Sequence record: PV691511.1
Length of the DNA: 64,000 nucleotides
Reading direction: 5' to 3' (one strand)
Source of the DNA: Escherichia phage WPEC2
The notes beneath the pieces were generated by a model that was not told the origin of the DNA, made no database searches, and saw nothing but the letters and a program-made list of their open reading frames with translations. A program made the position numbers and the translations under genes. Of the stretch, positions 4,654 through 44,591 are shown one piece after another (position 1 is the first letter of the stretch; each line of letters begins with the position of its first letter).

Positions 4654-5256
4654 TTATGGACATTCATACCATTCTTTTTTACCACCGAAGGCCATCACCA
4701 CATCACAAATATCCAGACCCGCTTTACCTACACCATATGCTTTCAGCTTCCATTCCCCATCTTCACGAACCAAGGAGGCCACGTGGCAGATTGTGTTGCC
4801 AGCTACTTCAGGAGCCAGGAAGTCAAAATCCAGAATTTCCACATTACGTTCGGAGTCAAAGATTTTAAGCATACCTTCAGAAGCATGACCAAAACGTTTC
4901 AGACCTGTATCATCATCAATGGTCAGAACAAAGGCAATCTCTTGTGCATCAGGAGAGATTTTAGCCAGAGTAATATCAATCTGCTCCATGCTGCCAGTCC
5001 CATCACGAACATCGTCGCCAGCGAAAGTAGAACGTTCAGGATCAAACTTGTTAGCATAGCAAACCAGGTGACGTGCAGACAGCATTTCAGGATTGCCAGC
5101 AGCATTATGACGACAAACCAGTGCACTTACATCCAGATCCAGTTTAGAATTAGATTTCCAAGAGAATTCCAGGCGCAGTTCTTTCAGAGCCGGAGCAACT
5201 TTCTTCAGGGAAATTTTTTCGCTAGAGCCTTTTTTCAGGGAAATTTTATCAGTCAT
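4654..5256 (-). CDS. terD: TerD-family protein
   Basis: 200 aa; N-terminal ISLKK repeat, overall TerD-like pattern (GDDVRDGTG, LTIDDD). Confidence 0.75.
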   Translation of the reverse strand: MTDKISLKKGSSEKISLKKVAPALKELRLEFSWKSNSKLDLDVSALVCRHNAAGNPEMLSARHLVCYANKFDPERSTFAGDDVRDGTGSMEQIDITLAKISPDAQEIAFVLTIDDDTGLKRFGHASEGMLKIFDSERNVEILDFDFLAPEVAGNTICHVASLVREDGEWKLKAYGVGKAGLDICDVVMAFGGKKEWYECP

Positions 5257-5271
5257 CTTTTGTCTCCTCTA

Positions 5272-5541
5272 TTATTTAAGTGTAATACCAGTTACAGTCA
5301 ATTCTACTTCCAAAAGCTTAGATGTGTTTTGGATTGTTACTAATTGTGCATGATGGTTTAGTTCTACAGCAGAATAATCATTTTCCCCATCATCTACTTT
5401 TAAATAAACAATGACTTCACTAAGGTCTAAACCATTTTCGTCAAATGCATTTTCATAGACGAAAGTATCTCCTACATCCAAATCTTTAATGGTAAGGCAT
5501 CGTTTATTTACTTTTTGCTCATCAATTTCGAAGTTTAACAC
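5272..5541 (-). CDS. hypothetical protein, paralog of 41800-42096
   Basis: 89 aa; shares GDTF.Y and VEL.VT.ITLK motifs with 41800-42096. Confidence 0.45.
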   Translation of the reverse strand: MLNFEIDEQKVNKRCLTIKDLDVGDTFVYENAFDENGLDLSEVIVYLKVDDGENDYSAVELNHHAQLVTIQNTSKLLEVELTVTGITLK

Positions 5542-5770
5542 TTCTTCCTCCTAATGTTATCTCCGGTTTGTCTATACGAAGAATTATAGCATTTTCATTT
5601 TCTTTGTCAACCCATTCTTCATAATCGGGCCATACATGAATCTCTACTCTACTTACAATATCTTCCATCCGCACAGTCCCAATGAAGTATTCTTTGAGAC
5701 TGCGCATAATGAAAGCTTCTCTCTCGCGCCAATAATTTTCTACGACTTGAGAGGCAAGCTCGTCGATCAT
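5522..5770 (-). CDS. hypothetical protein
   Basis: 82 aa ORF; start overlaps stop of the vWA fragment. Confidence 0.4.
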   Translation of the reverse strand: MIDELASQVVENYWREREAFIMRSLKEYFIGTVRMEDIVSRVEIHVWPDYEEWVDKENENAIILRIDKPEITLGGRSVKLRN

Positions 5771-6118
5771 TTTTTAGCACCTACTTTAACAACCCACTCT
5801 CCGAACTCTTCAGATAAGAGTTTGTCATAAAGCTCTGAATCTGTCAAGTCTAAATCTTTAATGCCAATAAAACCAACATTATCGTAAGCATTTGCCAGTT
5901 CTTTCAGGAAGCCAAACTTCTCATTACCAACGCCAACCATGAACCAATAAATAGGTTTATTCTTATTCTCTTCAATAAGACGACGAACAGCACTAGGATC
6001 ACCATTCTCACCGTCTGTCTGGAAGAATACAACACCAGGAGTAACGTCAGCACTTGGTTCAGATACAGCTACAACCTTTTCACGCTCTACAGATACTGTT
6101 TCAGTTTTACCAAGCAGA
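5767..6118 (-). pseudogene. vWA (TerY-like) C-terminal fragment, separated from its N-terminal half
   Basis: Frame encodes VVFFQTDGENGD... to a stop at 5767-5769; upper 77 nt (6042-6118) identical to 41279-41355 inside the vWA N-terminal ORF; no start codon, abuts a repeat module at 6119. Confidence 0.55.
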
Positions 6119-6205
6119 GAAATTACTACAGAACAAGCCCTTATCGACGAGGGTCGTAAAATCTTAGAAAAGTATTTAGGGGAGATTCATAAAACCCCTG
6201 GCTAT

Positions 6206-42096: not shown

Positions 42097-42634
42097 TTTT
42101 GAAGCCTAAATCGTAAGCTTCTTTAGTGATCTTTTGTAACTCACTTATAGGAAGTGTTACAAGAGGATCATCTTCTTCAATTTCCATCTTGTCATCTTCT
42201 GTTTCAATGAGAGTATTATGCACTTTGTGATAAGGGTTGTCAACACGTTTAAACTTATTCTTTTCTGTGCTGAAAAAACAATCTGGATCTTCTTCACCAT
42301 CACCCCAACCTTGATTAGGATCTCCGTCAGATTGTTCTGTAGGAATTTCACCTGTAAAATACTCTTCCAGCACCATAGCGATACCGTCCCTTGGATTCGA
42401 GGAATGCATCAAATCACAAACCTTACTCCAGTCCATAGCCCATTCAAATCGTTCACGAACGCCATTTTCATCCTCCTTCCCAGAGAAAACACAGCCGTAG
42501 CTATCATAGTTGCCATACATTTCTTCAATAACAACACCGTCCTTCAAAAGAAAGAGGTAGCAAGGCGATCCGTCGAAAGAAGTAGAAAGGGCAGCTTTGC
42601 CCGATTCTTTGCACAAGAAACTAAAACAACCCAT
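42071..42634 (-). CDS. hypothetical acidic protein
   Basis: 187 aa. Confidence 0.45.
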   Translation of the reverse strand: MGCFSFLCKESGKAALSTSFDGSPCYLFLLKDGVVIEEMYGNYDSYGCVFSGKEDENGVRERFEWAMDWSKVCDLMHSSNPRDGIAMVLEEYFTGEIPTEQSDGDPNQGWGDGEEDPDCFFSTEKNKFKRVDNPYHKVHNTLIETEDDKMEIEEDDPLVTLPISELQKITKEAYDLGFKIGRGGMRV

Positions 42635-43032
42635 TACAAACCCTCCTTCAGATTATCAAGAGCTACAGTGGTTTCACAAAATTCTCCATAAGCTTTATGA
42701 TGTTCCAGAAAAGCTTCGGGTCCGCCCCAATCATTATCTTGTGTATTCCAGCCATCAATAAAAGCATCTTCAATGATTGTGATAAGTTCTTGTCGAGTCA
42801 ACGTAATGGTATCAGGTTTCTGTGTAGTTTCCACACGGAAGCCTGGCTCTTTGTAAAAACCTGTAGTTACAATGGCTTCTAATTCTTCTGCATCGCAGAG
42901 GTAATAACCACAAAGATAACACCAACCATCGTCATCTTTCATTACTTCATAAACTTCACCACTGGTTAACTTGGTGAAAAGAGTAGGATCTGTTACTGTT
43001 AGTTTTAAACGAATACCTGTTGGATTATACAT
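42634..43032 (-). CDS. hypothetical protein
   Basis: 132 aa; GAGGAGG upstream. Confidence 0.45.
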   Translation of the reverse strand: MYNPTGIRLKLTVTDPTLFTKLTSGEVYEVMKDDDGWCYLCGYYLCDAEELEAIVTTGFYKEPGFRVETTQKPDTITLTRQELITIIEDAFIDGWNTQDNDWGGPEAFLEHHKAYGEFCETTVALDNLKEGL

Positions 43033-43197
43033 CTTCTTCCTCCTCTAAAATATGAAACCCGTAATTACAATAATCCTGAAAGGTTTCGTGTGCAAGATCT
43101 TCTATATCCTCTTGAGACATATCATCTTCAATTTCGATATCCACAACCTCATTGCATCCACACCAAGCAGTTTCAATATTCACTCGTAATATTTTCA

Positions 43198-43395
43198 TTA
43201 CTCCTCCTCTTCATTGAAGTCAATATCTGCAAGGAGTTCGAATTTACGGAAGTTACGACAACCTTCATAAATATAACAATCACGACAAACTGCTAGAACG
43301 CTTGGGGGATATATGCCTCCCATCGGTGCGAATCGTTTTTCGTCATCATAACGGACACCAATGTCTTCATCGATCATATAGATACGGATTCTCAT
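43198..43395 (-). CDS. hypothetical small protein
   Basis: 65 aa; GGAGGAG upstream. Confidence 0.35.
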   Translation of the reverse strand: MRIRIYMIDEDIGVRYDDEKRFAPMGGIYPPSVLAVCRDCYIYEGCRNFRKFELLADIDFNEEEE

Positions 43396-44591
43396 TTACC
43401 AAGCCCTCGTTTCACAGCAGCTACCATCCCGTCTTCCAGAGATTGAACTTCATTAATATAATCAACACGAGCAGCACGGGCTTCCGTATTGATGCGGTTA
43501 GTTTCTTCCAACATCTTAACCAAGTTTTCCTGATCGTGACGCAGAGTTTCAATATCCAACACTTGACGGTTAGCCAGTGCTGCTGCTTCGATCTGATTCT
43601 GTGTGGCAAGATCGCTACCCAGTTTAATTGCCAGGTTAAATTCATCAAGAACGTTATTCTGCGTCTCTGCTGCTTTCATTTGACGTAAGCTCTCGATATA
43701 CATTGAGAAGTTAGCAGAGTAAGCAGGAATAACATTATTTACTATGTTACGCGCAGATCGCATTAAGCTTGCAGAAACTTTTTGCATACCTTGTACACGC
43801 GGTCCCATTTGGACACACAGTAGGCGCAATGCTTTTAAATCTGCAATACGAATCTCCAGAAGATCCAAAGTATCTCGGATCACTTGTCGCTGTTCTACTG
43901 CATCTTCTGGAAGAGCAGCCAAAGCTTGTTCTTCTTTTTCATAGGTTGCTGTTAGAAGCTGCATATCTCGGTTCAAACTTGCAGCATATTGTCCAATAGC
44001 TTGATGTAGCTTTTCAAGATATACCAAGGAATCTTCTTCTTTGCGAATATCCATTTGAAGGTTCTTTACCAACTCTTCAATACGGTTATTAACATTATCA
44101 AACTCCCCAAACAGGTCTTCTTTCATACCCATAACTTTTTTAATGAGTTTAGTAATACCCTTGCTTTGTTTAATAGAGTTTGGATCAAGTTGTTTTGCCT
44201 GTTTAATCAAAGCTGTGAGTCGTTCACTCATCTGATCGCCTTGATTACTACGTTGATGTTTTAATACCTCGGCATTCAAGGAACGCAAGGTTGTTCCTGC
44301 CTCTGCCCCAATCTCTTCGATCTCTTGTCGGGTCATAGAAGGCAAAACTGGAACTTCTTGCGGTGCCGCTGGTGCATAAACAGGACTGGCATCTAACACG
44401 CTTGGAGCGAATACAGATTTACTTGCATCTGTTGTTGCAGCAAATACGCTCATTTCAGGCTTCTTCGGACCACCAGTAGCTGCTTTTAAAAATGGATCTA
44501 TCACTTCATAAGCGCCCAGTTTGCTGCTGTTAGGCACCATTAACGCGAATACATCACCAACAACCAGGTTTTCTACTGTTACAGGGTGCAC
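43392..44591 (-). CDS. telA: TelA-like protein (toxic anion resistance family); N-terminal ~55 codons made of repeat modules
   Basis: 399 aa; long coiled-coil-rich body resembling the TelA/KlaA family; the first two ~25-codon segments are identical to modules dispersed in the mosaic array. Confidence 0.6.
   Translation of the reverse strand: MHPVTVENLVVGDVFALMVPNSSKLGAYEVIDPFLKAATGGPKKPEMSVFAATTDASKSVFAPSVLDASPVYAPAAPQEVPVLPSMTRQEIEEIGAEAGTTLRSLNAEVLKHQRSNQGDQMSERLTALIKQAKQLDPNSIKQSKGITKLIKKVMGMKEDLFGEFDNVNNRIEELVKNLQMDIRKEEDSLVYLEKLHQAIGQYAASLNRDMQLLTATYEKEEQALAALPEDAVEQRQVIRDTLDLLEIRIADLKALRLLCVQMGPRVQGMQKVSASLMRSARNIVNNVIPAYSANFSMYIESLRQMKAAETQNNVLDEFNLAIKLGSDLATQNQIEAAALANRQVLDIETLRHDQENLVKMLEETNRINTEARAARVDYINEVQSLEDGMVAAVKRGLGK

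Follow-up and report, generated by a model that had tools for sequence, protein, structure and literature searches.

The window analyzed here is the whole 64,000-nucleotide (nt) stretch of DNA from Escherichia phage WPEC2 (sequence record PV691511.1). Its minus strand carries genes of the TerD, vWA and TelA families, and the vWA gene lies in 2 parts that are separated by 35.2 kb and share a 77-nt segment. The window was compared with the complete sequences of phages phAPEC8 and WPEC1 by local BLAST. On the evidence set out below, we conclude with high confidence that the 35-kb split of the vWA gene is an assembly artifact, in which the pieces of a k = 77 assembly were joined end to end with their overlaps kept. 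The genes and features at the 2 ends of the split, including the metal ion-dependent adhesion site (MIDAS) of the vWA protein, are as follows:

4654–5256, minus strand: TerD-family gene, 200 aa; equals phAPEC8_00200 and WPEC1_CDS350 and is syntenic with phAPEC8 and WPEC1.
5272–5541, minus strand: small gene, 89 aa; paralogue of 41800–42096 and homologue of phAPEC8_00201.
5767–6118, minus strand: 3′ part of the vWA gene, codons 148–264, with the MIDAS Asp in QTDGE; without its own start codon.
6042–6118: left copy of the 77-mer, the final 77 nt of the piece 1–6118; single copy and contiguous in WPEC1 (155032–155108).
41279–41355: right copy of the 77-mer, the opening 77 nt of the assembly piece 41279–44496.
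41279–41798, minus strand: 5′ part of the vWA gene, codons 1–173, with the MIDAS D38-x-S40-x-S42 and the GGGTNY Thr.
41800–42096, minus strand: small gene, 98 aa; paralogue of 5272–5541 and homologue of phAPEC8_00204.
42071–43395, minus strand: 4 small conserved genes of the vWA–TelA interval, homologues of phAPEC8_00205 to 00208.
43392–44496, minus strand: true part of the TelA-family gene (PF05816); its first 3 codons (MTS) are absent.
44497–44591, minus strand: spurious N-terminal extension of TelA, about 32 residues; a short graph edge from the phAPEC8 ~3347 site.

The segments 6042–6118 and 41279–41355 are identical 77-mers, and the similarity breaks off exactly at both edges. Both copies run in one direction, as direct repeats, and the reading frame is exactly restored when the 35.2-kb interval is excised. 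Translation of the minus strand continues in frame from the left copy through ...VVFFQTDGENGD... and ...TPGVVFFQTDGENGD... to VKVGAKK and a stop at 5767. No in-frame start lies upstream of this left part; the start codon is lacking because the assembly piece ends at 6118. The open reading frame (ORF) at 41238–41798 exits the 77-mer into repeat material and stops 13 codons on, and these final 13 codons (41238–41278) belong to an unrelated piece. Rejoined, 5767–6118 and 41356–41798 give a 795-nt vWA ORF, which bears out the proposal of the sequence-only reading that removal of the interval between the identical segments would yield one intact vWA gene. The DNA of the rejoined ORF is 100% identical to that of WPEC1_CDS353, and its protein shares 261 of 264 residues with phAPEC8_00203.

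Comparison with WPEC1 revealed how the 2 parts belong together. The piece 1–6118 corresponds to WPEC1 148991–155108 (phAPEC8 109431–115552), and the piece 41279–44496 corresponds to WPEC1 155032–158249; the 2 pieces are adjacent in WPEC1 and overlap by exactly 77 nt. The left 77-mer copy is the k-mer overlap of 2 adjacent graph edges. Both phAPEC8 (phAPEC8_00203) and WPEC1 (WPEC1_CDS353) carry the vWA gene as one intact 795-nt coding sequence (CDS). The relatives, which the sequence-only reading had proposed to consult for an intact gene, give a uniform answer: the gene is one uninterrupted 795-nt piece in all 64 of the 64 records that carry it, and the split is due to the assembly of the record.

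The false nature of the join at 6118/6119 is also evident from both of its sides. A megablast search with window positions 4000–8000 found matches in 131 phage records, the best being Phapecoctavirus coliphages with about 98% identity, and every match ends at 6118, where the left 77-mer also ends. WPEC1, WPEC4 and WPEC6, which come from one laboratory and from Thai hospital wastewater, are 100% identical to the window up to this base; the comparison of WPEC4 (PV682947) and WPEC6 (PV763039) covered 4000–6118 and the vWA gene, and was 100% identical over both. The 6118/6119 join occurs in none of the 68 records that match a junction-spanning probe, and a 16-kb probe likewise found the joins of the window in no phage record of the collection searched. 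On the other side, the sequence beginning GAAATT at 6119 is preceded in the window by the vWA 77-mer, instead of by its true upstream sequence (...GGAAGGAATG followed by GAAATT), which is present in 5 independent genomes and in a separate 153-nt piece of the window at 59440–59593. This piece reads ...GAGGAGGAAGGAATG followed by GAAATTACTACAG..., and the same reading is found in phAPEC8, EF1-1, Mt1B1_P17, anhysbys and ECO340P1.

The window as a whole is a mosaic of Phapecoctavirus (phAPEC8-like) sequence, the blocks of which are 100% identical to WPEC1 but differ in order and orientation. The 35.2-kb interval between the vWA parts consists of a 25.8-kb block, a 1.75-kb block, an array of about 1 kb, a 2.3-kb block and a 4.2-kb array. 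The pieces of the interval and the arrays beyond it are as follows:

6119–31946: 25.8-kb assembly piece, inverted with respect to the Ter genes (phAPEC8 31918 down to 7348); contains the metallophosphatase gene.
31947–33698: 1.75-kb assembly piece, phAPEC8 about 2186–431; falsely joined on both sides.
33699–34739: array of short graph edges of 77–80 nt, plus a piece of about 330 nt at 34407–34738.
34740–37054: 2.3-kb assembly piece; its terminal 77-mers recur at the distant block ends 45556–45632 and 61120–61197.
37055–41278: 4.2-kb array of about 55 short graph edges with a mean of about 77 nt, some of about 153 nt, in both orientations.
44497–45009: array of short graph edges.
45633–49388: 3.8-kb array of short graph edges.
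58834–59587: array of short graph edges; holds the wild-type piece 59440–59593, the true left neighbor of 6119.

The left end of the piece 6119–31946 severs the start codon of the homologue of phAPEC8_0087. The vWA frame stops within the “repeat module,” the array 37055–41278, where break points occur every 73–83 or about 150 nt and the pieces map to about 8 phAPEC8 sites. Together, the 5 arrays occupy about 10 kb of the window. They are composed of pieces of about 77–80 or 153 nt, set back to back in both orientations, which derive from only about 8 phAPEC8 positions, and all of these positions are block ends.

Several small recurrent ORFs on the minus strand that encode MRLKSRPSCKNQLK... and other peptides (39551–39721, 40491–40631, 40592–40783, 44554–44697 and 45613–45753) are translated array pieces, and the plus-strand ORFs encoding LGLCPSSLLF... 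are likewise translations of concatenated pieces of about 77 nt.

The lengths of the repeats bear the signature of k = 77. About 68 of the 72 families of maximal exact repeats in the window are 77–80 nt long; none is 85–144 nt, and the maximum length is 154 nt (2 × 77). In phAPEC8, no k-mer of at least 60 nt is repeated, and WPEC1 has 522 repeated 77-mers. All junctions between long blocks are flanked by 77 + 77 nt that recur elsewhere, and the terminal 77-mers of the blocks recur 2–4 times. Another 2 pairs of distant blocks have a terminal 77-mer in common (34740–34816 with 45556–45632, and 36977–37054 with 61120–61197), and each pair is contiguous and single copy in WPEC1; the vWA split is therefore one case among several. 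The 77-mers of the window that are absent from WPEC1 fall into about 100 runs, mostly of 70–76 k-mers; all but 5 of the runs span 1–84 k-mers, and these 5 span 144–152, that is to say, 2 merged junction runs. Among these roughly 100 junction-spanning runs, none has exactly 77 k-mers, the length expected of a single-nucleotide polymorphism (SNP). Therefore, the window and WPEC1 are identical in content, and only the joins differ.

The block ends coincide with clusters of variable bases. At each of the break sites (phAPEC8 ~428, 3347, 7350, 31920, 40645, 61736, 118705 and 134878), 2–3 variable positions lie within 2–6 nt, as seen in the window pieces 37212–37364, 38370–38523, 40511–40664, 46103–46256, 47229–47385, 58831–58989 and 59440–59593. 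The pieces of about 153 nt comprise the allele combinations of a site in full: 6 of 6 at phAPEC8 ~7350, 8 of 8 at ~40645, and 4 of 4 at both ~31920 and ~61736. The long blocks halt directly before or after the variable bases. These piece lengths and allele combinations exactly match the edge set of a k = 77 de Bruijn graph near clustered variants.

At the variable bases, G>A and T>C changes predominate on the sense strand, in Shine–Dalgarno or start-codon contexts; the start codons hit include the ATG of TelA and that of the phAPEC8_0087 homologue. We found no common motif among the variable sites, which share purine-rich Shine–Dalgarno or ATG contexts. At the ~31920 site, the one compared with relatives, all 5 of 5 relatives have ATG, and the variants occur in this data set alone. 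A scan of IMG/VR for natural variation at the phAPEC8 ~40645 site returned a single locus, which is too few. At very high coverage, systematic errors or minor variants are the likeliest cause of the graph breaks; the assembler would have merged any isolated variants, which would leave only the clustered ones visible. That the clusters are instead real, site-specific hypervariable spots, produced for example by localized deamination or targeted mutation at translation-initiation regions, is very improbable.

These features suggest how the record came about. The pieces of a k = 77 de Bruijn graph were most likely strung together, in whatever order and orientation, with the k-mer overlaps unremoved. 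The true neighbors, one ending at 6118 and the other beginning at 41279, would each have retained the shared 77-mer, and the 25.8-kb block, 2 blocks of about 2 kb and about 5 kb of mini-edges of 77–153 nt would have been inserted between them. A normal 795-nt TerF-type vWA gene would thereby have come to look as if it were split by 35.2 kb with “77-bp direct repeats.” In SPAdes, the largest default k for 150-nt reads is 77, and the shortest edges are k + 1 = 78 nt. The ends of de Bruijn contigs, such as those of SPAdes at k = 77 or of circular genomes with k-base end repeats, share several properties with the window: (i) the repeat length equals k and the repeats lie at the ends of unique blocks; (ii) dropping one copy restores contiguity; and (iii) mini-contigs of about k and about 2k occur around clustered variants. 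Unlike in ordinary k-mer contig overlaps, the pieces of the window were joined blindly, with neighbors 35 kb apart and mini-contigs in arrays; the identity of the assembler, like the cause of the graph breaks, is what we infer from this pattern. A Phapecoctavirus from Thailand is reported to have been assembled from Illumina reads with SPAdes 3.15.0; its global similarity to a close relative was given as just 54.8%, although the two were about 97% identical locally (PMC13096147). These assembly data, which serve as context only, fit the picture of concatenated pieces.

Two points weigh against an origin by concatenation of k = 77 pieces. First, no third edge that would explain a branch at the vWA 77-mer is visible in the 64-kb window. 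Second, pieces of exactly 77 nt occur, compared with the 78 nt (k + 1) expected, which leaves the precise tool or trimming step uncertain. The second point also favors the alternative that some other artifact produced the record, such as chimerism of long reads, scaffolding or intentional shuffling after assembly. We consider this very improbable: the piece lengths and allele combinations are those predicted for the k = 77 edge set, long-read chimeras would lack the 77-nt quantization, and the public record of WPEC1 shows the same signature. It is possible that the artifact pipeline differed in detail, which would leave the conclusion unchanged.

The 2 explanations that treat the arrangement as real are both extremely unlikely. 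In the first, put forward by the sequence-only reading, an insertion or duplication-mediated rearrangement of 35.2 kb, with 77-bp direct repeats at its flanks, would have inactivated the vWA gene. The same-orientation repeats and the exact restoration of the frame on cutting out the interval are what such an event would leave behind. However, the interval has no coherent ends or mobility genes and is made of scrambled blocks of the core phage genome and arrays of ~77-nt pieces, and the length of 77 nt is a general repeat quantum, common to about 68 unrelated repeat families and to all other block ends. Moreover, records whose DNA is 100% identical carry an unbroken vWA gene, the true neighbor of 6119 is present in the window as a separate piece, and the window differs from WPEC1 in its joins alone, without SNPs. 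Nor does the interval have the form of a mobile element with a target-site duplication, as its left edge cuts a start codon. The interpretation of the interval as an insertion is thus abandoned. Inversion or recombination between the 77-bp repeats was rejected on the same evidence. We also rejected MITE-like (miniature inverted-repeat transposable element) mini-repeats or promoter modules, because the units are fragments of single-copy phAPEC8 genes and intergenic regions and phAPEC8 has no repeats of at least 60 nt.

In the second, rearranged genomes (recombinants or defective particles) would really coexist in the phage stock, and the record would be a true minority arrangement. This would agree with the identical sequence shared in different orders by WPEC1, WPEC4, WPEC6 and the window and with the real-looking micro-heterogeneity at the break sites. 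However, recombination would not join 77-nt pieces bluntly by the dozen and in both orientations, and the one-k-mer junction spacing and the side-by-side allele combinations are not expected from it. A main genotype in which start codons are truncated and essential regions split would also not be viable.

The concatenation of k = 77 pieces appears to extend beyond the window. The deposited “complete genomes” WPEC1, WPEC4 and WPEC6 appear to share the same problem. The WPEC1 record (PV659873) is 161,280 bp long, compared with about 148–152 kb in relatives, and is permuted with respect to phAPEC8 as well as to the window; its regions that resemble the window arrays contain many CDSs of 90–150 nt annotated as “hypothetical protein.” A literature search found nothing relevant on the WPEC phages.

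Behind the artifact, the real feature of the locus is the conserved abbreviated Ter cluster of Phapecoctavirus, which is already known in phages. Conservation of the cluster extends to all 64 Phapecoctavirus-like records that were examined for the vWA gene. Family membership was assigned by a Pfam profile search with curated bit-score cut-offs, and the TerD and TelA calls of the sequence-only reading held up. The TerD gene matches PF02342 (E = 1.5e-28, 100 bits, cut-off 25.3) over residues 5–179, corresponding to profile positions 3–177 of 187; no exact match of the window TerD protein in public assemblies is on record. The rejoined vWA protein matches the vWA-TerF-like family PF10138 (E = 8.9e-38, 130.9 bits, cut-off 29.4), as does its 5′ fragment alone (E = 3.4e-16), and a full MIDAS is legible in it: D38-I-S-G-S42 (DxSxS), GGGTNY and QTDGE. 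The generic VWA profile PF00092 scores 18.9 bits, below its cut-off of 23.8 bits, and the protein therefore falls outside that family by this measure. Judged by these profile scores, a TerF-type assignment is better than a TerY-type or generic VWA one; the gene had previously been described as a TerY-like vWA gene, of which the vWA domain with its MIDAS stands and the likeness to TerY does not.

The TelA gene matches PF05816 (E = 4.1e-33, 115.3 bits, cut-off 30) over profile positions 13–327 of 332. Its extent had been given as 43392–44591, and here the family is right but the residues encoded by 44497–44591 are not part of the protein: about 32 N-terminal residues of the 399-aa ORF come from unrelated repeat material and not from TelA. 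The phAPEC8 TelA gene begins MTSPFLKAATGG... (MTSPFLK...), with its start at phAPEC8 118704, and the block end maps to 118696; the codons MTS are absent from the window because the assembly piece ends at 44496.

The 2 small genes beside the vWA parts (5272–5541 and 41800–42096) are paralogues, as had been proposed, with 31% identity and E = 7e-15 in a BLASTP comparison. Among the 4 small genes of the vWA–TelA interval, the 2 tested (42071–42634 and 42634–43032) have no Pfam match. The calcineurin-type phosphatase at 6442–7185 on the plus strand was correctly identified from the sequence (Metallophos, PF00149, E = 2.7e-13), but its description as a nearby gene fails. It is the homologue of phAPEC8_0086, a gene separated from the Ter genes by about 82 kb in the phAPEC8 record; therefore, its nearness to TerD in the window was made by the false join at 6118/6119.

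In phAPEC8 and WPEC1, the gene order is TerD, genes of 270 and 249 nt, vWA, genes of 279, 564, 399, 174 and 201 nt, TelA, an SprT-like gene, 3 small genes and TerC. The SprT-like metallopeptidase of phAPEC8 (L006; 18701–19273, minus strand, E = 4e-9) follows directly after TelA, and TerC (20917–21891, minus strand, E = 3e-40) lies 2 kb further on. The real Ter neighborhood therefore exceeds the window. A literature search on phAPEC8 together with TerC found nothing.

Comparable clusters have been described in other phages. Klebsiella phage phiKp34 encodes terC (gp124), terF-vWA (gp131), terD (gp132/133) and telA (gp135) (PMC8386662), and the Ter gene set also occurs in jumbo and certain related smaller tailed phages (Iyer et al. 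2021, PMC7824862). The Phapecoctavirus cluster has the same families as these, namely TerD, TerF-type vWA and TelA in the window and TerC in phAPEC8. It differs from them in that (i) only one TerD gene is recognized by Pfam and (ii) an SprT-like gene stands beside TelA in phAPEC8. Compared with the bacterial terZABCDEF/telAB operons for tellurite resistance and phage inhibition, with which it has TerD, TerC, TelA and the C-terminal vWA domain of TerF in common, the phage cluster does not have TerB, TerA, TerZ and TerE, nor adjoining biosynthetic genes of the phosphoribosyltransferase (PRTase) and haloacid dehalogenase (HAD) families. The phage vWA protein also differs from bacterial TerF in that it is a stand-alone protein with a short ISLKK N-terminus in place of the TerD domain.

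It has been proposed that TerD is a ligand or metal sensor and TerC a membrane effector, and that TelA and TerF-type vWA proteins form sub-membrane assemblies that act against superinfecting phages or xenobiotics (PMC7824862). By analogy, the Ter cluster of Phapecoctavirus is most likely a membrane-associated module that may act against superinfection or chemical stress.

Elsewhere in the window, 4 consecutive genes that are annotated as glycosyltransferases in WPEC1 (CDS342–345) lie on the minus strand at about 188–3332, between the primase/helicase and endolysin genes. A dTDP-rhamnose pathway is also encoded elsewhere in the phAPEC8 record.

The finding has value for quality control, as at least 1 family of “complete” phage genomes (WPEC1, WPEC4, WPEC6 and the record of the window) apparently consists of unordered concatenations of assembly pieces. 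Such records hold about 10 kb of spurious arrays of ~77-nt pieces and dozens of spurious small ORFs, as well as chimeric gene ends and false gene neighborhoods, and they will continue to be picked up whenever genomes are scanned for repeats, split genes, novel small proteins or gene context. A simple diagnostic is that the lengths of exact repeats peak sharply at a k that assemblers commonly use (such as 55, 77 or 127). For the biology of the phage, the finding means that there is no split gene, no insertion and no repeat-mediated rearrangement at this locus; in the phage itself, the vWA gene is intact within the conserved abbreviated Ter cluster.

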